Origin: an uncultured Pseudomonadota bacterium
Lineage (GTDB): Bacteria; SAR324; NAC60-12
Length of the DNA stretch: 20,390 nucleotides
Direction: 5' to 3'
NCBI GenBank assembly: GCA_913020725.1
Contig: CAJWCD010000064.1
Span: forward strand, 1-20,390
Part shown: piece by piece, positions 2,725 through 20,390 of the stretch
How the letters are laid out: each line of letters opens with the position of its first letter
Position numbering within the stretch: position 1 is the first letter of the stretch
Program-made: the position numbers and the translations under genes
The notes under the pieces: generated by a model
The model's database searches: none
The model's input: the letters and a program-made list of their open reading frames with translations, nothing else
What the model was told of the DNA's origin: nothing

Positions 2725-3990
2725 TCATGCGGTGTCCTCCAACGCAGGAGGTTTGAGAAACAACGCAGCTATCGCACAGATTGCCGGAAACACCGCGAGG
2801 ACACGCAAGGCGGGGTCATAGTTGCCAAGATAATCCAGTGACATGGCCAAAGGCAGTGGTCCTAGCGACGCTCCTACAACGCCAATCATCTGCCCTATCC
2901 CCTGAATACTGCCCAAGTGCTTGCGTCCAAAGTAGCGCGGCCAGAAAAACGCGAAGTAGGTCATAGTCACACCATTGTTGAGACCAAAAATCAACGCGTA
3001 CACGATGGCGCCAGCAAGGTCGCTCACAAAGGTCACAGAGAGCAGCGACATGCTCATCACCAGCAAGCCTCCAGAAAACATCAAGTGGGTTGGGAAGCGG
3101 TCAAGCATGCGCCCGATGATCGGCATTGTGAGTGCCGCCATAATTCCAGAAACCGTGAACATCAAAGTTGCGGTTTGCGGTTCCAGACCATGCTGGCTGA
3201 GGATGCCCTTGTTTTCGACATGCAACGAAGTCACCAGCCCTGCGAGAAAAAACAGGCCTGTGCAAATGATGTAAAACGCTGGAGTCCGCAGAGCTTGAGA
3301 GAGCGTCAATCCGGTGATCCCCGCTGATGCAGATGGATCATCTTCCAGAAGCAATCCATCCGGACGCAGGTTGATTTCCTCCGGTTTGCTGTAGAGCAGC
3401 ATCAGGGCGGGAGGAACAATCAGCACCCATGTGATGAGGCCAAACCAAATCCAAGCTTGCCGCCAGCCGACTTGTCCGATCAACCACTGCGCCAACGGCG
3501 GGTGCACCGCCATTGAAATCGGAAATCCCAGTGACATCAAACCCAAGGCAAAACCACGTTTGCGGTCGAACCACTGCGAGACCATGTTTACACAGGTGAG
3601 CATCATTGCTCCTTGTCCCAAAAACCGCAGACAACCAAAAGCCACCGCCAAAAGCACCCAGTTCGAAACCAGACTGAAGACCATTGCCATCAATCCTAAT
3701 CCGGTAGCCAGCACCCACAGCAAACTCGCTGGACCCCAGCGGTCGATCAACTTGCCCACCTGAGGCAACAGCAACGCAGCCATCAGGGTTGCACTTCCAT
3801 AAGCTGCAGCGATGGAGGTCCGTGGCAGGCCGAGTTCCAACGAAATGGGGTCGAAAAATATCCCGATCAGGTGGGATTGCGCAGGGCCTGTTCCGAACAT
3901 CCCCAACATGGCCACGCAGAGGATGACCCAACCGTAGAAAAATTTGTGGCCCAAACGCTGAACGGCAGCACTGCGGATTGATTCCAACAT
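2725..3990 (-). CDS. MFS transporter (OFA/MCT-like)
   Basis: About 12 hydrophobic segments. MFS motif A-like GKLIDRWG and GRMLDRFP, plus FFYGWVI, QWFDRKRGFALG and YFGRKHLGSIQG. I chose the ATG at 3990 over the track's TTG at 4092. Confidence 0.9.
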   Translation of the reverse strand: MLESIRSAAVQRLGHKFFYGWVILCVAMLGMFGTGPAQSHLIGIFFDPISLELGLPRTSIAAAYGSATLMAALLLPQVGKLIDRWGPASLLWVLATGLGLMAMVFSLVSNWVLLAVAFGCLRFLGQGAMMLTCVNMVSQWFDRKRGFALGLMSLGFPISMAVHPPLAQWLIGQVGWRQAWIWFGLITWVLIVPPALMLLYSKPEEINLRPDGLLLEDDPSASAGITGLTLSQALRTPAFYIICTGLFFLAGLVTSLHVENKGILSQHGLEPQTATLMFTVSGIMAALTMPIIGRMLDRFPTHLMFSGGLLVMSMSLLSVTFVSDLAGAIVYALIFGLNNGVTMTYFAFFWPRYFGRKHLGSIQGIGQMIGVVGASLGPLPLAMSLDYLGNYDPALRVLAVFPAICAIAALFLKPPALEDTA

Positions 3991-11282: not shown

Positions 11283-11373
11283 ACCATTGTGCTGCCCGTG
11301 TGCAGGATAACGTATTGCCTGATGACCCGAGCTTCAATGTTTGTTAGAAGCTGTTGACCGACATGACTTATTT

Positions 11374-14300
11374 ATGACCAACAAAACCAAACCGTCTTCA
11401 AAGAGAACCCGCAACGCTTTCCGAATGGCGGAGGCGATGTCGCATGACCTCGCCCTGAAATCCCGACGCCCCAGCACGGGAACGGATTCCGGCATTCTCG
11501 GTCTGCTGCCGAACAAGATGATCCGCGAGCAAATCCGGGAACTGCGGCGTTTGGATGTGGATGCCTACATCCAGCGTGTGGTGCTACCTTCTGAGAACCA
11601 GAAACGCCTCAGCACCCAAGAGGTGATCCAAAAACTGGGGGGCAAGCTGATCTCCGAGGATTCCGATGGCCCGTTGTACACGGCAGAACTTGAATTCCTG
11701 ATGAGCGGGCGACTGCGTCGCATTGGGGTGCTGGCGCAGAATCACAAAGTCCAAAACGGCATCTGGTACCCCCATCACCACCGACGGGCGGCAGAGAAAA
11801 TCCGCTTCTTCGCGTCTCACTCCATGCCGCTCGTGACCTTCATGGACACCCCCGGAGCGGCTGCAGATTCTGATGCCAACCTGCAAAACCAGGCACACAG
11901 CATCTCGTTTCTAATCGCCGAGATGGCTAACCTCCAGCTTCCGGTGGTTGGCGTTGTTTTCGGATGCGGCTACAGCGGAGGCGCGATTCCGTTGGCAACA
12001 GCGAACGTGCTGCTCTCCATCCGGGAGGGGGTCTTCAACACCATCCACCCTCGCGGTTTAAGCAACATCGCCCGCAAGTACAACCTCTCGTGGCAGGAAT
12101 CCGCCAAGTACATTGGCGTGTCCTCGTATGAGTTGTGGGATCAGGGCTATTTCGATGGCATTGTGGATTTCAGCCTCTCGGATTCGAAGCGGGTCTTGCC
12201 GCTCAAGACCGCGATCCTCAGTGCGATTGAGCATGTGGAGGAGAACGCACGGGACTTCCTGAAAGAAAACCCCTTCTTTTTTGAGCACTACCGCGACAGC
12301 ATTCAGCGCTACCTCAACCCCTCCGAACTGCTGATCGAGAACAACCGCAAGACCGACCGCACTCCGACCGGCACCCTCAACATTTTCGGGGTGGTCTATC
12401 GTTACACACGCTATCTGGGGTTGCGGCAACGTATCACCAGCCGCTCCGTTCACCAATACTCCCGGCTCAGCCATCGCAAGACGCCCAGTGGGATGCTGCT
12501 GGAACGGCAAGCCCGAGAGCGGGAGGAGAAGTTCACGCGCTGGCTGGAGGCTCCGCTGGAACTGCGCTACCACGATGGGCTCAACAAACGCTTCCAGCAG
12601 TATCAAAACGCACAGGACAACCGCAGCAAGGAGCGCGGACGCTTCGCAGCTTTTTTCATGGGCGACCCTCGCGAGAACTACGACAAGGCGCTGGATGACC
12701 TCGTTTTTGATGCGTTGTTTTATCTCTACAATTTTTGGAAGGACAGCATCCACGAGAACCTCCTGAACCTCAATCAGCACCTCGGCACCCTCGCTGTGTT
12801 GGAAACGCTTCCTGAGCAGCCGGACTTGCTGACCCTCCTGCGCCTTCCGGAAGTCCGGGCACGCTTCGAGGAGAACTTTCCGAACCTCCTGCTCTTCGAC
12901 CTGCTCTACAATCAAGTGATTGACGGCCTGCCTTCGATTGCCGGAGAACTCAAGGGCAGCAACCGTATTTCGGAAGAGTCGGTGGCCAAGCTCTTTGACG
13001 AAGCGCTGGAGCGGGCGCTTGCCCAGCTTGAGCAATCCGAACTTCCCGTGGACCGTGAGCAAACCCGCAAGCGCTTTTTCGACTGGCTCAGCGCCTTCAT
13101 CTCGCAGAAAACCTGTGACGAGGTGATGGGAACGATCAGCGCGTGGAAGCGGGTGGTGTTTCCGCGCATGAGTCCTCCGCTCTTTGGGCTGGTGCGCTAC
13201 TACTTCTCCGGACTGCTGCCCTCGTTGCACACCGCCCAGCAGGGCAGTGGCAAGTTCGACGGCAAGATCACCCCCAAGAACATTGGCATCAAGGATTTCT
13301 GGAACCGACTGGACCAAGCTTACAAGGACCTCCTCATCCAAAACCTGCTGCGCTCCTGCAAGCGCAAAACCATCGCCCCCAACGACATCATTGACCGCTT
13401 CTTCGCGGGCTTCCAGGAGTTTTACGCCGACCGCATCACCGCGAACCCCCTCCAGTTTCCGGGCTTCCGGGAGGCCATCGAAAGAGCTTTGGCCCAAGGC
13501 GTGGTGCCCTGCGGGGTGGTGACCGGGCTGGCGCAATTCACTCCGGACTCGCAGGCGGAAGGCCGTGCTGCCGAAAAAGCAGCGGCGCCCTTCCGGGTGG
13601 GGCTGGTGGTGAGCAACAGCGCATTTCAGGCCGGAGCCTTCGACATGGCGAGTTGCGAGAAAGTTTGTCGCTTGCTCGACGAATGTGCCCGCCTCAAGCT
13701 TCCCGTCATCTTCTTCATCTCCTCGGCAGGAATGCAAACCAAGGAAGGCGCAGGCGCTCTGTTCTCGATGGCGATCATCAACGACCGCATCACGCGCTTT
13801 GTGAAGGAACTCGACCTGCCCGTGGTTTGCTTCGGCTACCGCGATTGCACAGGTGGGGCGCAGGCGAGCTTTGTCACGCATCCGCTGGTGCGGACCTACT
13901 ACCTCTCCGGAGCGCAGATTCCCTTTGCCGGACAACTTGTTGTCGAAAGTCATTTGCCTGCGCATTCCACGCTCGCCAACTACCTCTCCCGGACTCCGGA
14001 GACGATGGATGGACTCGTGATCAATCCCTTTGACGAGGGGCTTGACGAGCATCTCCGGGAGATTGACCCCGACTTGCCGGTTCCGCAAAACACGGTGAGT
14101 GAGGTGATGGGGCGGGTCTTGTCCGGAGAGTATCAGTTGCAGGTCGGCGTGGAGGCCGAGGGGGGCAGCCTCAGTCAGGAGCAGCTCAACACTGATCCGA
14201 TCCGTCGGGTGCTGATCCACGCCCGAGGCTGCACGGCGACCCGTCTGATCCGGGCCTCCCAGTCGGCGGGCATGGAGGTCGTGCTGGTCGCCTCTGATCC

Positions 14301-15945
14301 GGACATGGAAAGCTACCCGGCCTCGCTGATCCGCAAGCAGGACCGCCTCGTCTGCATTGGCGGCAGCACCCCGCAGGACAGCTACCTCAACGCGATGAGC
14401 GTGATCCGCATTGCGGAGCAGGAGGAGGCGGATGCGATTCACCCAGGAATCGGCTTCCTCTCCGAATCGCCTCGCTACGCCCGCATTTGCCGCGAACACG
14501 GTTTCAATTTCATTGGGCCGCGTGCGCACAGCATGGACCTGATGGGCAACAAATCCAATGCGATCGCTACCGCCCGCAGTCTCAAAATTCCGGTAGTTCC
14601 GGGTAGCGAGGGAGCCTTGGTGGACCCCGTCCACGCAGCGGGGGTGGCGGAGGAAATCGGCTTTCCAGTCTTGATCAAGGCGACGCATGGCGGTGGTGGC
14701 AAGGGCATCCACATCGTGGATGCCCCGGAAGAATTCCCGGCCATCTTCTCCCGGATGTCCCAAGAGGCGTTGAGTGCCTTTGGAAACGGCGATCTCTATC
14801 TGGAGAAGTTCATCGGCTCGATGCGTCACTTAGAAGTGCAGGTGATCCGGGATTTGCAGGGCAACTCGAAGCTGCTGCACATCCGGGATTGCTCAGTTCA
14901 GCGCAGCTATCAGAAGCTCATCGAGGAATCCGCATTCGCCCTGCCTCAGGAAATCCGCCACGAAGTTTTCGACCACTCACTCCGACTCATTGATGAGATG
15001 GACTATGTGGGCGCAGGCACGGTTGAGTTCATTTACGATCTCAAGGACCGCTGCGTGTATTTCATGGAAATGAACACACGCTTGCAGGTTGAACATCCGG
15101 TGTCGGAGATGGTCACAGGGGTGGACCTCGTGAAGCAGCAATTCGGCATCGCCTCCGGCGAGAGCATCGCTCAGCTCAAGCCCCGCAACGATGGACACGC
15201 CATCGAAGTCAGGATCAACGCAGAGCGTGTGGAAATCACCGATTCAGGTGAGTTGCGCTTTGTGCCGGCTCCGGGAGAAGTCACCGATTTCGACTTTCCG
15301 GAAGAGTCCCATGTGCGCGTGATCCCTGCTGTGCAACCCAACTCGGTGGTTTCCCCGCACTACGACAGCCTCATCGCGCAGGTCATCGTTTGGGGCAGAT
15401 CCCGCAAAGAAGCCGTCTCCCGACTCAGCGATTACTTGGGCCGAGTGCGCATCCACGGAGTGCCGACCAATCTGGAACTACAACGCATGATCCTTGACGA
15501 TGCCGGCTTCCGACGCGGACGCTTTGACACAGCCTTCCTCAAGGGATTCTTTGCACGAATTGAGGTGGAAGAACTCATCCGCCGGACGCAGGAGGCCACC
15601 GGAAAGGCGGCGGATTCCATGGATCGCAGTGCCATCGAATTGGAAGGCGGCAACGAGTTGAAGGTGCTGTCTCCACAGATGGGCGGGTTCTATCGCTCTA
15701 TTTCCCCGGAAGAGGAGGTGCTGGTGGCGGAAGGCAGTGTGGTGGATGTCAACCAGCCGCTCTGCTTGCTGGAATCTATGAAGGTGTTCTCTGAATTGAA
15801 ACTGCGCTCCTTCCGCAGTGCGGCGGGGGAGGGGCTTTACCCGGAAACCAGCCACTACCGCATCACACGCATCCTCGCTGAAGACAAGCAGACCGTGAGT
15901 GCCGGAGATTTGCTCTTTGTCGTGCAGCCGGTTGAAACCCGTTAG
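11374..15945 (+). CDS. Single-chain biotin-dependent acyl-CoA carboxylase: CT-alpha, large insert, CT-beta, biotin carboxylase, BCCP
   Basis: AccA-like FMDTPGA and GYSGGA. AccD-like GVVTG, CTGGAQASF and IPFAGQLVVE. BC motifs DAIHPGIGFLSE, MGNKSNA, GGGGKG, RDCSVQR, FMEMNTRLQVEHPV and AIEVRINAE. Biotinyl motif ESMK at 15772-15783. ATG 11374 preferred over TTG 11341. Confidence 0.93.
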   Translation: MTNKTKPSSKRTRNAFRMAEAMSHDLALKSRRPSTGTDSGILGLLPNKMIREQIRELRRLDVDAYIQRVVLPSENQKRLSTQEVIQKLGGKLISEDSDGPLYTAELEFLMSGRLRRIGVLAQNHKVQNGIWYPHHHRRAAEKIRFFASHSMPLVTFMDTPGAAADSDANLQNQAHSISFLIAEMANLQLPVVGVVFGCGYSGGAIPLATANVLLSIREGVFNTIHPRGLSNIARKYNLSWQESAKYIGVSSYELWDQGYFDGIVDFSLSDSKRVLPLKTAILSAIEHVEENARDFLKENPFFFEHYRDSIQRYLNPSELLIENNRKTDRTPTGTLNIFGVVYRYTRYLGLRQRITSRSVHQYSRLSHRKTPSGMLLERQAREREEKFTRWLEAPLELRYHDGLNKRFQQYQNAQDNRSKERGRFAAFFMGDPRENYDKALDDLVFDALFYLYNFWKDSIHENLLNLNQHLGTLAVLETLPEQPDLLTLLRLPEVRARFEENFPNLLLFDLLYNQVIDGLPSIAGELKGSNRISEESVAKLFDEALERALAQLEQSELPVDREQTRKRFFDWLSAFISQKTCDEVMGTISAWKRVVFPRMSPPLFGLVRYYFSGLLPSLHTAQQGSGKFDGKITPKNIGIKDFWNRLDQAYKDLLIQNLLRSCKRKTIAPNDIIDRFFAGFQEFYADRITANPLQFPGFREAIERALAQGVVPCGVVTGLAQFTPDSQAEGRAAEKAAAPFRVGLVVSNSAFQAGAFDMASCEKVCRLLDECARLKLPVIFFISSAGMQTKEGAGALFSMAIINDRITRFVKELDLPVVCFGYRDCTGGAQASFVTHPLVRTYYLSGAQIPFAGQLVVESHLPAHSTLANYLSRTPETMDGLVINPFDEGLDEHLREIDPDLPVPQNTVSEVMGRVLSGEYQLQVGVEAEGGSLSQEQLNTDPIRRVLIHARGCTATRLIRASQSAGMEVVLVASDPDMESYPASLIRKQDRLVCIGGSTPQDSYLNAMSVIRIAEQEEADAIHPGIGFLSESPRYARICREHGFNFIGPRAHSMDLMGNKSNAIATARSLKIPVVPGSEGALVDPVHAAGVAEEIGFPVLIKATHGGGGKGIHIVDAPEEFPAIFSRMSQEALSAFGNGDLYLEKFIGSMRHLEVQVIRDLQGNSKLLHIRDCSVQRSYQKLIEESAFALPQEIRHEVFDHSLRLIDEMDYVGAGTVEFIYDLKDRCVYFMEMNTRLQVEHPVSEMVTGVDLVKQQFGIASGESIAQLKPRNDGHAIEVRINAERVEITDSGELRFVPAPGEVTDFDFPEESHVRVIPAVQPNSVVSPHYDSLIAQVIVWGRSRKEAVSRLSDYLGRVRIHGVPTNLELQRMILDDAGFRRGRFDTAFLKGFFARIEVEELIRRTQEATGKAADSMDRSAIELEGGNELKVLSPQMGGFYRSISPEEEVLVAEGSVVDVNQPLCLLESMKVFSELKLRSFRSAAGEGLYPETSHYRITRILAEDKQTVSAGDLLFVVQPVETR

Positions 15946-16348: not shown

Positions 16349-16561
16349 TCAGCGTCCGGGCTTGCAGACGAGTAGTGCCCGCTCGTACTTGCCAAAACGC
16401 TGGGTGCTGAGTACTTCAAAATCGCCGTGACAGCGCTGCACCGCCTTGGCCTGAAACTCGCTGAGATCCCCTTCCTTGTAAAACACCTCATCCACTTTCG
16501 GGGCACACCCGAACAGCAACAACACCGCCAGCAGCACCCCACTCGCATCTCTCCCCGTCAC
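16349..16561 (-). CDS. Small hypothetical lipoprotein (70 aa)
   Basis: GTG at 16561 overlaps the rarA stop (GTGA). Lipobox LFG-C follows a hydrophobic stretch, and two more Cys could form a disulfide. Confidence 0.7.
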   Translation of the reverse strand: MTGRDASGVLLAVLLLFGCAPKVDEVFYKEGDLSEFQAKAVQRCHGDFEVLSTQRFGKYERALLVCKPGR

Positions 16562-18750
16562 TGACGCACAACCACGAGTTGAAGAACCGTCCGGGACCAT
16601 GGGTGCGTTTTATGGGGCACGTGTTGTTTGAAGGCTTGGGCAATCTCCTGAAAGGTGGCTGGGGCCAGCAACGACCGGAGTTTCCCAAAATACCCCGTGT
16701 TGTTGCGAGGCTCAAGCCATTCTTGAATTCGGTGCGCTGCAAGCCGCAGTTCGGTCGTGTAAGATTTTTCGCTGCAAACCACTATGGAATACCCCACTTG
16801 CAGGCGTTCGCCAAAAGCTTTCTTCGTCAGAGTGCCGTCTTTGTTCTGAAGGGGCTGATAGATTTCCTGCTCCGCGTCCAATAATGCCTGTTTTGTTGAT
16901 GCATCCAATAAATTCGCCGCCAGCAGACTAGAAAGCCGAGGAGCCTTGCTGGGTAAAGAGAGGGCGAAGAGCAATCGTCCTGCGGGGGCAAGTAAGTCAG
17001 AAAGTGCGGCCAACTGCCCGGAAATCGGAGGCTCCTGCTCAGTAGGAAACCAACCCAAGATGCGCTCAAAGCGGATATTCGAGGAGGCCAGTTGCTCGGT
17101 GATATTTTCCAGAGTCCCCTCATGCCAAACGCAGGCCGGATGTTCAGATTCGGCATCGGGTCCGGTCCAAAGTGCGCGCTTGCCCCCTGTGGGTAGCCAG
17201 ACGTGGACCCCCTCGTCCGGAGTTTGCCGACGCAGTTCAGGGGTGAGCAATCCGGAGGCGGGTTCTAGCGCAAGTGTGAGGGAATTGCGTTGCAGTTGGG
17301 CGTGCACAAAAAGATCCGTGCGGATTTGCGACAACACCTCCGTGCTGGTGTCGTAGGTTCGTTCTTCCCAATCCGGACCCTGCGATTTGGCCTCGCTTTC
17401 CAGCAGGGCCGCGATCATGGCTTCGCGCCGGCGTAGCACTTCTACTCGCAGGTGCTGTTCGTAGCCTTGGTCCGACGGCTGGTAGAATACCCGCCCTTGC
17501 AAGGCATCCGGGAGGTACTGCTGCGCCACCCAATGATCCCGGTAAGCGTGGGGATAAAGATAGCCTTCGCCATGCCCGAAACTTTCCTTGTCCCGATTGG
17601 CGTCCTTGATAGGATCAGGCACCTCGTCCTTAGATTCGGACTCCACTGTCCGCAGCGCGTCAAAGAACGCAAACGCGCTGTTGCTCTTGTGGGCGGTGCT
17701 GAGGTACAAGCAGGCTTCTGCGAGAAGAAAGCGACCCTCCGGCATCCCCACATAGTTAAAGGCCTGCGCGGCGGACGTGACCACCGAGAGGGCTTGCGGA
17801 TCGGCCAAACCCACGTCTTCCGCTGCAAAGATCGTCATCCTCCGAAACAGAAAACGGGGTTCCTCACCACCGAGGATCATCTTCGCCATCCAGTAGAGTG
17901 CTGCATCCGGATCAGAGCCGCGCATGGCCTTGATGAACGCCGAGGCGGTATCGAAATGCACATCACCATCCTTGTCATACAAGACCGCCCGCCGCTGGAT
18001 GGAGTCCTCAGCGACCTCCAGTGTGACTGGCACCACACCGTTTGCGTCCGGAGGAGTGGTCTGCACCGCGAGTTCCAGCGCGTTGAGGGCCGAGCGGGCA
18101 TCACCGGACGCCACCTGTGCGAGATGCGCGCGGGCTTCCGGAGCAAACGCCACCTGATGTTGTCCAAGCCCGCGTTCGGAATCCGCCAGTGCCTGATCCA
18201 AAAGGCGTGCGATATGCTCAGCCTCCAGCGCATGCAATTGAAAAATCCGGGAGCGGCTCAGCAGAGCCTTGTTGACCTCGAAGTGCGGATTCTCAGTCGT
18301 TGCACCGATCAGCACGAGGGTACCGTTCTCAACATGCGGGAGCAGTGCGTCCTGTTGCGCCTTATTGAAGCGGTGGACTTCGTCAATGAACAACAGGGTG
18401 CGAATCTGACGGGTGCGCCACGCCTCCTGCGCTTGCTCCACGCACTGCCGGATGTCACTGATCCCGGCAAGGACTGCGTTGATCGAAAGAAAGTCGGAGC
18501 GTGTGGTCTGCGCGATGATGTGGGCAAGGGTCGTTTTGCCACTTCCGGGAGGGCCAGAAAAGATGACACTGGAGAGTTGATCCGCCTCGATCGCCCGACG
18601 CAACAGCCGTCCGGGAGCCAAGACATGAGCTTGCCCCACGAATTCCACCAACGTCCGGGGGCGCATGCGCTCAGCCAGCGGGGCCAACTGTTGACGCACC
18701 TTGTCGGCAGCGTGATCCAAGAGTGGAGCGTTTGGGTTGCGTTTGGGCAT
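16558..18750 (-). CDS. rarA: Replication-associated recombination protein A (RarA/MgsA) with a long C-terminal extension
   Basis: APLAERMRP, Walker A GPPGSGKT, FIDEVHRFNKAQQDALLP, IGATTENP, SAFIKAMRGSDPDAALYW and YLYPH...QQYLP. About 280 extra residues follow the usual end. Confidence 0.95.
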   Translation of the reverse strand: MPKRNPNAPLLDHAADKVRQQLAPLAERMRPRTLVEFVGQAHVLAPGRLLRRAIEADQLSSVIFSGPPGSGKTTLAHIIAQTTRSDFLSINAVLAGISDIRQCVEQAQEAWRTRQIRTLLFIDEVHRFNKAQQDALLPHVENGTLVLIGATTENPHFEVNKALLSRSRIFQLHALEAEHIARLLDQALADSERGLGQHQVAFAPEARAHLAQVASGDARSALNALELAVQTTPPDANGVVPVTLEVAEDSIQRRAVLYDKDGDVHFDTASAFIKAMRGSDPDAALYWMAKMILGGEEPRFLFRRMTIFAAEDVGLADPQALSVVTSAAQAFNYVGMPEGRFLLAEACLYLSTAHKSNSAFAFFDALRTVESESKDEVPDPIKDANRDKESFGHGEGYLYPHAYRDHWVAQQYLPDALQGRVFYQPSDQGYEQHLRVEVLRRREAMIAALLESEAKSQGPDWEERTYDTSTEVLSQIRTDLFVHAQLQRNSLTLALEPASGLLTPELRRQTPDEGVHVWLPTGGKRALWTGPDAESEHPACVWHEGTLENITEQLASSNIRFERILGWFPTEQEPPISGQLAALSDLLAPAGRLLFALSLPSKAPRLSSLLAANLLDASTKQALLDAEQEIYQPLQNKDGTLTKKAFGERLQVGYSIVVCSEKSYTTELRLAAHRIQEWLEPRNNTGYFGKLRSLLAPATFQEIAQAFKQHVPHKTHPWSRTVLQLVVVRQ

Positions 18751-18867: not shown

Positions 18868-18943
18868 GCGGGAGTAGCTCAGTTGGTAGAGCATCAGCCT
18901 TCCAAGCTGAGGGTCGCCGGTTCGAACCCGGTCTCCCGCTCCA
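18868..18943 (+). tRNA. tRNA-Gly (TCC)
   Basis: 76-nt cloverleaf. Acceptor stem GCGGGAG/CTCCCGC, anticodon arm TCAGC-CTTCCAA-GCTGA, TTCGAA T-loop and encoded CCA. Confidence 0.97.
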
Positions 18944-18974: not shown

Positions 18975-19051
<77 letters not shown>

Positions 19052-19117
19052 AATAAATCCAATAAAATCATTAGATTAAAGAGATATTTTTTAACCTCTT
19101 GATTTGGTATAAATCTG

Positions 19118-19164
19118 TACCCCACACTATACCCCACATACTTTAACTCTTTTGGATATACCCC
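19118..19164 (+). repeat. Tandem direct repeats resembling tyrosine-integrase arm-type binding sites
   Basis: TACCCCACA at 19118-19126 and 19130-19138 (12-bp period), with a partial copy TATACCCC at 19157-19164. Confidence 0.65.
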
Positions 19165-19388
19165 TCGCATTTGAGTAAAAGATACCTTGAGCACACTATC
19201 GCCAAGTCAGGTCAGAGCAAGCGCAGTCAAGCCAGAATGATCCTCTCATTGAGTTGATACCCTCTATCACCTGAAACCTTCTGGTGTTGAAATCATTCCT
19301 CAAGCACCTCAGTTCGGTCTGATGGCACCGATCGTGGGATGGAAGCGATCCCTACAGTTTCATCCTTCCAACAGTCCTTCCGCAATAG

Positions 19389-19394
19389 TATAAT
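19389..19394 (+). promoter_or_regulatory. Possible -10 box upstream of the terS-like gene
   Basis: Perfect TATAAT, but only a weak -35 (TTCCAA at 19366-19371, 17-bp spacer). Confidence 0.3.
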
Positions 19395-19541
19395 TAAAGC
19401 TCCAGCTTGGCTCCATGCCTGACTGCCCAAAAGAAGGGCAGGGGGGAACAAAACAGCCCCCAATGCTACATAGTACATTCCCTCCCTCTATTCGGGGGGA
19501 GGATTTTGGTGTTCAGCCCATTAACATTTTTGAGACTTGAA

Positions 19542-20015
19542 ATGCGGCGCTTTGGAGAACTCTCAGAACAGCGGCAGGTGTTTGTTCAGGAATACTGCAG
19601 GCTGGGAGATCATGTGGAGGCAGCCCGTCGAGCGGGGTATTCGGAAAAGACCCTCAACAATCAGGCATGCAAGCTCAAGCGCGAGCTCTCAGGAGAAATT
19701 GAAAGCGAGTTAAGGTTTAATTTCGTCAGCCATGCCCCGAACGCCTTGAGAATACTGACAGAGCTGGCAGAACACTCCAATTCGGACAGTGTAAGGCTGC
19801 AGGCCGCAAGAGATCTTCTGGACCGTGCCGGATACAAGGCAGTTGAACGAAGAGAGGAGATCACCCAGCGGCCGTCCACTCAAGAAATTGAATCCGAGAT
19901 TGTCAGGCTGGTCGGCAGGGAAGGAGCAGATCTGCTGCTTCAGAAGAAGTCCCTTGCAGACTTGATGCAAGAGAATAGAAAAGATTCTGGGGTGGTCTCT
20001 GAGTTGGTGAACTGA
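19542..20015 (+). CDS. Phage terminase small subunit-like protein (157 aa)
   Basis: LSEQRQVFVQEY...EAARRAGYSEKT matches the N-terminal HTH pattern of the TerS (Terminase_2-type) family. The helical segment SDSVRLQAARDLLDRAGY is typical of related phage proteins. ATG 19542 preferred over TTG 19407. Confidence 0.78.
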   Translation: MRRFGELSEQRQVFVQEYCRLGDHVEAARRAGYSEKTLNNQACKLKRELSGEIESELRFNFVSHAPNALRILTELAEHSNSDSVRLQAARDLLDRAGYKAVERREEITQRPSTQEIESEIVRLVGREGADLLLQKKSLADLMQENRKDSGVVSELVN

Positions 20016-20058
20016 ACCTCTAGGACGGACCAAAACTTCTGAAACACTTCTTGATCTG

Positions 20059-20170
20059 TGTAACTGGGATTAACCAGAACCACGGTCAATGCCCCTCTCC
20101 ACATACCCTCAAGAGAAGACTGGCTATGCCTTCTTGGGGGCAAACCACTTCGGAGAGAATTCAGCTCCGC
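20059..20170 (+). ncRNA. Speculative tracrRNA-like RNA (imperfect anti-repeat plus hairpins)
   Basis: 20059-20086 is partly complementary to the putative repeat and is followed by stem-loops at 20106-20140 and 20151-20169. Confidence 0.25.
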
Positions 20171-20313
20171 CAGATAATATCTGCCAGCATGTGATCCTCC
20201 CTGAGAATCTAGGGAAAATTAATAAAGGTTTGCAATGAACCGGGTGGGGTGGTAAAAAGCCCTTGGTTCGTTCAGTACTTGAATGAGCTAATGCGTTACA
20301 AACTGGGTTTTCC

Positions 20314-20390
20314 GCTGTGATTTACAGTCAATCCTCTAGGTGTTACAATTGTCATTCGACTGCACCAAGTTTGGGGCAGGCTGTGATTTA
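20314..20390 (+). CRISPR. Start of a putative type II-C-like CRISPR array: one repeat, one spacer and a partial second repeat
   Basis: GCTGTGATTTA occurs at 20314 and at 20380, a 66-bp period, and the second copy is cut by the window end. This parses as the 36-nt GCTGTGATTTACAGTCAATCCTCTAGGTGTTACAAT (20314-20349) plus a 30-nt spacer (20350-20379). The unit ends in TGTTACAAT, like the TGCTACAAT end of Neisseria II-C repeats. Only 11 nt are seen twice, so the 3' boundary is inferred. Confidence 0.6.

Follow-up and report, generated by a model that had tools for sequence, protein, structure and literature searches.

Type II-C CRISPR systems include arrays whose repeats are themselves promoters. 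According to the accessible text of PMC7038990, the terminal nine bases of II-C repeats hold an extended -10 element, and transcription of the arrays runs opposite to that of the cas genes. Available parts of that paper and of PMC8092290 describe the opposite-strand layout together with repeat promoters, the Neisseria and Campylobacter cases are reviewed in the part of PMC5965381 at hand, and an excerpt of PMC12477760 places the transcript start at the 6th base of each spacer. A promoter within the repeat is an already described property of II-C arrays according to these extracts (PMC7038990, PMC5965381, PMC8092290, PMC12477760), and because of this its presence at a further locus has less novelty. 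For the EH CRISPR-Cas9 system, repeat promoters are named by the authors as one option in the available portion of PMC10281378.

The accessible part of PMC11876622 reports a PICI-like element in the marine lineage SAR324, and also marine particle DNA that carries Cas9-like genes, some of them accompanied by integrases. In the available part of PMC9944714, the SAR324 genome is not among the six genomes with arrays; the accessible part of PMC12379486 makes no mention of CRISPR, which also goes unmentioned in the main text, as available, of the work on tycheposons (bioRxiv 10.1101/2020.12.28.424599). The titles and abstract openings listed in a literature search, in which subscription journals were largely uncovered, contained no SAR324 CRISPR-Cas9 system of the kind described below.

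Here we analyze a stretch of 20,390 nucleotides, referred to as the window, which is the entire contig C64 of the SAR324 genome G000 and ends, cut off at position 20390, inside a CRISPR array (Table 1). Taken as a whole, the locus is probably the oldest end of a type II-C system with predicted promoters in its repeats. Elsewhere in the window, positions 11341-15945 encode a 1534-aa protein with carboxyltransferase, biotin carboxylase and biotin-carrier domains in one chain, and positions 16558-18750 encode a RarA/MgsA ATPase with about 290 extra C-terminal residues matching no Pfam family; its length of 730 aa is usual in its 105-member cluster.

Table 1. Features at the right-hand end of the window.
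Feature	Position	Strand	Evidence or remark
tRNA-Gly(TCC), host core	18868..18943	+	
tRNA-Met(CAT), initiator-type by sequence; integration hotspot	18975..19051	+	Host synteny ends here
Direct repeat of 12-nt period, 64 nt behind tRNA-Met; likely integrase arm-type site	19115..19138	+	
Terminase small subunit-like (terS-like) gene, 157 aa from ATG	19542..20015	+	PHROGs phrog_51, E 5.8e-11
CRISPR repeat 1, 36 nt, likely leader-distal	20314..20349	+	0 mismatches to L032 repeat, 2-4 to six other loci
Predicted repeat-internal promoter	20321..20349	+	TTTACA 20321-20326, 17 nt, TG-n-TACAAT 20341-20349; consensus match
Spacer 1, 30 nt, likely oldest of array	20350..20379	+	No target found
Repeat 2, first 11 nt, cut by contig end	20380..20390	+	Matches start of repeat 1

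The array at the contig end

The first-pass annotation of this DNA had proposed a CRISPR array at the window edge from a single exact 11-mer, GCTGTGATTTA, which lies at 20314-20324 and again, 66 nt on, at 20380-20390. These are its only two copies in the 3.45-Mb genome. Taken alone, the pair is modest evidence for an array: as genome background, 88 of 3,431,037 positions begin an exact 11-mer that is repeated at a distance of 66 nt, and the last 11 nt of a contig recur 55-80 nt earlier at 2 of 408 contig ends, namely the window and a run of N. The inferred 36-mer was therefore tested in other sequence sets, using its two ends as a search pattern against genome_contigs, viral_contigs and metagenome_contigs. 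The pattern had no match in the first two sets and 15 in the metagenome contigs. Eight of these, with 12-16 mismatches over 36 nt, were discarded as chance, and the other seven (L023, L024, L026, L030, L031, L032 and L033) differ from the 36-mer at 0-4 positions and are true relatives. Among 88 genomes of the phylum, the repeat occurs only in the window's own; a match of 21 nt with 2 mismatches in G019 has 12 mismatches over the full 36 nt and no second repeat, and was set aside as chance.

Two of the relatives are decisive. L032 carries the 36-mer with 0 mismatches, the only other exact copy of the window repeat, and 5' of it a further repeat ends, followed by a 30-nt spacer; this unchanged copy bears out the exact repeat boundaries that had been proposed. 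L031 holds an array of 10 repeats that differ from the window 36-mer by three changes, spaced 65-66 nt apart. In addition, a contig from metagenome run X1 consists of the repeat, another 30-nt spacer and the repeat again. No two of the 15 spacers collected are alike, and 13 are 30 nt long and two 29 nt, which, with the spacing in L031, agrees with the predicted geometry of 36+30. That the 11-mer pair reflects chance or paired protein-binding sites gains something from the 88 genomic positions with the same periodicity, but this reading is already refuted by the external copies: L032 has the full predicted 36-mer as an array repeat without a single change (blastn E 2e-12 among the collected loci), and run X1 carries it around a different spacer. 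We give it next to no weight. These results confirm a real CRISPR array in the last 77 bases of the window, where one repeat and one spacer are followed by the first part of a second repeat.

Immediately to the left, GTTACAA at 20295-20301 is unsupported as a decayed extra repeat, as 13% of 3000 random windows align equally well, and hairpins in 20010-20320 are unconvincing (z -0.2 to -1.7). A search of the window spacer against phage and plasmid databases, the check suggested with the annotation, yielded only matches with E values of 2-8. One 18-nt viral match stops at base 18 and was rejected, and the 3' seed of the spacer has 0 matches. The L032 spacer has six viral seed matches that reach only 18-20 of 30 positions and have no common flank, and were likewise rejected. 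Compared with the window's own genome and 723 kb of loci, the 15 spacers show nothing beyond 17/18 or 19/21. Spacers of an assembled array could link this uncultured SAR324 lineage to its phages.

Cas genes beside the repeat family

Beyond the array of L032, on the opposite strand, lies the gene for a 963-aa Cas9, cut at its 5' end (TIGR01865 552 bits, cut-off 100), the order being cas9, a fused cas1/cas2 remnant, leader, array. In L031, the array is followed, again on the opposite strand, by cas2 and cas1 (cas1_NMENI 277 bits, cut-off 120), in the order cas1_NMENI, cas2, a leader of about 50 nt, array. Because only about 50 nt separate the end of cas2 from the last repeat in both loci, there is no room for csn2 or cas4, and the relatives L031 and L032 have cas1 and cas2, in L032 as the fused remnant, without either. 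This supports assignment of the repeat family to type II-C rather than VI-B, and the proposals that the array is II-C and that its cas genes lie to its right both hold in these two loci. Type VI-B (Cas13b) has the 36+30 geometry in its favor and nothing else; the repeat family adjoins Cas9, cas1_NMENI and cas2, and the 36-nt repeat folds no better than shuffles (z 0.33), with no stable hairpin, which makes VI-B vanishingly improbable, in keeping with its earlier rejection. Type II-D (Cas9d) was rejected as well, the L032 Cas9 scoring 164 bits against NF049971, below the cut-off of 375.

A tracrRNA was sought on the window side and in the relatives. In 19053-20313 the best anti-repeat duplex has -22.8 kcal/mol, compared with -21.9 to -28.6 in 20 shuffles, and an Rfam search of three loci, with the DNA upstream of cas9 outside the searched sequence, found tRNAs and no tracrRNA. 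A 79% match between L031 and G000:C83:16541-16879 was considered as a tracrRNA and rejected: it is an insertion-sequence end ahead of a transposase-like frame, a label given by eye. In L031 this insertion-sequence end, at 1925-2050, interrupts the start of cas1, and its 79% relative sits at the terminus of the window genome's own contig C83.

The L032 Cas9 is 93% identical to full-length proteins of 1024 aa in which the RuvC-I, RuvC-II, HNH and RuvC-III motifs are intact. Four named members of its cluster are labelled "SAR324 cluster bacterium", two of them as Cas9, and the same taxon name is borne by proteins whose genomes belong to the window's family; on these grounds the host is taken to be SAR324. 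The accession numbers of a partial Cas9 of the cluster and of a 92% relative of the window RarA are 1,545 apart, which is compatible with one shared assembly. Beyond the nearest ten or so clusters, identity falls to about 44% and below. The best matches of the full-length Cas9 among solved structures are Cas9 chains of 1082-1092 aa such as 8ja0, 6kc8 and 6jdq (E about 2e-74), presumably Neisseria Cas9. Relatives of the protein are limited to one 29% match in genome_contigs, with none in viral_contigs. A Cas9 match was found in 5 of the 88 phylum genomes; the 44 other genomes of the family have one, a fragment with a stop in G056. That fragment (L097, G056:C359) is a Cas9 5' end, 55% identical, beside tRNA-Ala and tRNA-Glu. 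The 1024-aa Cas9 is small, divergent and apparently uncharacterised, and could be taken into PAM screens.

Between cas9 and the leader of L032, positions 2868-3110 hold an in-frame cas1/cas2 deletion fusion of 74 aa counted from the first Met, made of the first 34 or so residues of Cas1 and the last 41 of Cas2, with nearly all of both proteins gone. The junction is bridged by contigs of three of four runs (X3, X5 and X6) with 0-2 differences, and an X1 piece there reaches only about 30 nt on one side. In X1, loose ends of at least 255 nt at the junction read, when translated by eye, as Cas1 continuing past the break and as the Cas2 portion that the fusion lacks; more loose ends occur in X6, at 3055 and 3102 of L032. 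The population seems to hold both deleted and intact cas1-cas2 alleles. With the deletion and an apparently intact form together, it offers a natural example of how adaptation is lost in a single population.

Probable linkage to cas9 and setting at tRNA-Met

To the right of the repeat, cas genes are present in two of the seven relatives, no cas homologue in four (L023, L024, L030 and L033, which are lone repeats or short arrays), and the contig ends in one. Cas-less remnants of this repeat family are common. In L023 (minus strand, 64-230), the last repeat directly joins the 3' part of an endolysin/peptidase-like gene, a junction that may be a deletion that took out the cas genes; L030 has a longer copy of the same gene at 304-1197, about 570 nt upstream of its lone repeat. 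At L026:1093-1747, a 517-nt insert lies between a repeat lacking its last bases and a repeat lacking its first bases; it contains one complete ORF (about 150 aa), for which PHROGs has no match.

The window's array could accordingly be an orphan or decaying II-C mini-array on an island that has lost its cas genes, transcribed from its repeats and guiding nothing. Neither cas1 nor a Cas9 over the cut-off occurs in the G000 bin (93% complete), four of the seven relatives, at 2-4 mismatches, lack cas genes on the right flank, the hotspot is rich in decayed pieces (G053 has six terS matches, several with stops), and the sole Cas9 match among the 44 other family genomes is the G056 fragment. Yet the only other exact copy of the repeat adjoins cas9 (1/1), and repeat 1 and the beginning of repeat 2 in the window are undecayed. 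CRISPR arrays break assemblies, and low-GC island contigs are easily dropped from bins. The flank and the Cas9 locus were compared across metagenome runs.

Runs chosen for containing the window's flank, all marine, seawater or hydrothermal-vent metagenomes, were aligned to the window end (X1, X2, X3 and X5) and to L032 (X1, X3, X5 and X6), out of 24 listed. L032 was covered in 4/4 runs, in 25-29 of 30 bins, mostly 95-100% alike and with a per-bin depth of up to 19 where covered. Depth over terS and flank was about 4-24 in the three runs aligned to both, the same order as over L032. The flank and the Cas9 locus thus occur in the same runs, which is co-occurrence and not linkage; no contig joining the flank to cas9 was found. 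Among the pieces listed from X1, X2, X3 and X5, no contig bridges the flank and a full repeat, and none of the four runs gave depth over 20353-20390. An X3 contig stops at 20320, after the first seven bases of the repeat; X1 and X5 extend past this position by 47 and 50 letters that disagree with the window, whereas X2 departs at 20295. Because run contigs branch or leave at 20320 or 20295, the left array edge differs between strains. Weighing these observations, we regard the orphan reading as unlikely, and cas9 is probably joined to the array in this genome.

The array lies in a hotspot of integration. Similarity to relatives mostly ends at tRNA-Met, and GC is 0.573 to its left versus 0.477 to its right. 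An identical 21-22-mer of the 12-nt-period repeat stands behind tRNA-Met in G013, and other repeats of that period were read by eye at the same place in G001, G002, G019, G022, G023 and G053; the repeat is likely an integrase arm site marking the left end of an integrated element. The only sizeable gene between tRNA-Met and the array is terS-like. It matches phrog_51 and phrog_2538, with PF03592 below the cut-off, and a longer frame of 202 aa opens at 19407. Matches to it occur in 8 of the 88 phylum genomes, its own included, with five in G043 and two in G019, and in viral contigs at 30 loci with 27-48% identity; one 90% cluster of terS has 5292 members. Behind the tRNA-Gly/tRNA-Met pair of G053 (C4:293021-317914; L085, L086), six terS matches, several with stops or frameshifts, are stacked within about 25 kb together with a partial tRNA-Met copy and metabolic cargo genes; no integrase was noticed by eye among the ORFs listed there.

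This arrangement raises the question of whether terS and CRISPR-Cas9 form one phage-satellite-like element at tRNA-Met that hijacks packaging and carries Cas9 as an anti-phage weapon. The order tRNA-Met, arm-type repeat, terS, array fits such an element, as do the GC and GC3 of terS (0.53, 0.58), close to those of the L032 cas9 (0.52, 0.61) and, like them, below those of rarA (0.59, 0.65). A terS or capsid gene, the mark of PICI-like satellites and tycheposons, is present here through the phrog_51 and phrog_2538 matches. PICI-like tycheposons carry terS at tRNAs in the available text of bioRxiv 10.1101/2020.12.28.424599, and the PICI-like element in SAR324 and the Cas9-like genes with integrases on marine particle DNA (PMC11876622, in part) point the same way. 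On the other hand, no integrase or replication gene lies between tRNA-Met and the contig end, where the contig stops in the array; the eight integrase matches of G000 are all on other contigs, and no attR or other second att copy was found in the bin. Moreover, 12 relatives' loci (terS loci, flanks of the G053 stack and the G056 Cas9 remnant) lack the repeat at up to 10 mismatches, the repeat, flank and Cas9 are all absent from the viral contigs searched, and PICI-like tycheposons never carried extra cargo in the part of bioRxiv 10.1101/2020.12.28.424599 available. We judge this single-satellite reading rather improbable: terS and CRISPR are neighbors in a hotspot, and that they form a single mobile unit is possible. 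More doubtful still is a terS-bearing satellite with a compact Cas9 at initiator tRNA-Met that exists as full, spacer-collecting alleles and stripped, Cas9-only alleles, the self-promoting array of the latter being refreshed only by recombination with the full form. If true, this would mean that a satellite carries a type II system and that the cells of a wild population share its adaptation.

Polarity, predicted mechanism and comparison with known systems

Returning to our preferred reading of a II-C locus with repeat promoters, we examined the orientation of the array. In L031 and L032 a short leader and then cas2 lie to the right of the last repeat. Because cas genes and leader are to the right of the array in these loci, the window likely holds its leader-distal, and oldest, end. 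The plus-strand orientation given to the repeat stands with this layout; the label "array start" holds in the sense of transcription only, as the leader end, by the L031/L032 order, is the other one. The leftmost repeats are decayed on their 5' side in all three loci where a decayed repeat is visible (L024, L026 and L033), which therefore also places the leader on the right. These decayed repeats keep the 9-nt tail TGTTACAAT; because such decay is expected from array polarity alone, retention of the tail is no proof of promoter function.

The same nine bases end the window repeat, as TG-n-TACAAT, with TTTACA 17 nt before the hexamer. A promoter scan found one site, versus 1.3 expected by chance, and so is no evidence alone. 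Six listed RNA runs have shares of 0.05-0.14 and give no evidence of expression. The extended -10 box does occupy the terminal nine bases of the repeat, and the arrays of L031 and L032 run opposite to their cas genes; promoter function within the repeat is predicted by analogy with the systems described in the accessible parts of PMC7038990 and PMC12477760.

From these features we propose how the locus would work. On its right the array would be followed by a short leader and then by cas2, cas1 and cas9 on the opposite strand, and transcription of each guide RNA would be driven by the repeat before it. RNA polymerase would recognize the TGnTACAAT box at the repeat end and start a few bases into the spacer, which by analogy to Neisseria puts the start of the first guide at about 20355. 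The transcript would comprise about 25 nt of guide and the 5' part of the next repeat. This crRNA would anneal to a tracrRNA, whose gene is expected upstream of cas9, and be loaded into the 1024-aa Cas9, which, judging from its intact RuvC and HNH motifs, would cut matching DNA next to a PAM. New spacers would enter at the right-hand, leader end, and cells with the cas1-cas2 deletion would presumably keep interference and acquire none. The locus as a whole would be cargo in the tRNA-Met integration hotspot, behind the terS gene.

This mechanism is textbook type II-C, and since the system is of a known kind its value is modest. What it adds is a Cas9 system in SAR324; its interest lies also in a small, divergent Cas9 and in the cas1-cas2 polymorphism.

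Among described systems, the locus resembles the II-C system of Neisseria meningitidis, in which, according to the available parts of PMC5965381, PMC7038990 and PMC12477760, cas9-cas1-cas2 stand without csn2 or cas4 and the array and the cas genes lie on opposite strands. An extended -10 box in the final nine repeat bases and a leader at the 3' end are shared as well, as far as those extracts describe them, and the L031 Cas1 matches the cas1_NMENI model. Unlike the Neisseria system, it has a Cas9 of a divergent 1024-aa clade, an uncultured marine SAR324 host and a common allele with cas1-cas2 deleted. The EH CRISPR-Cas9 system is, in the excerpted text of PMC10281378, likewise a metagenomic II-C system with a 36-nt repeat, a spacer of about 30 nt and an array truncated by the contig end; unlike the system here, it comes from a natural-park water sample in Spain and is laboratory-tested, a comparison made by description and not by sequence. 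With PICI-like tycheposons, as presented in the accessible part of bioRxiv 10.1101/2020.12.28.424599, the locus shares a terS gene next to a tRNA hotspot, and the serial integration, partial tRNA copies and decayed remnants described there for tycheposons recur in G053. It differs from PICI-like tycheposons in that no integrase or replication module is seen and in having SAR324 as its host.
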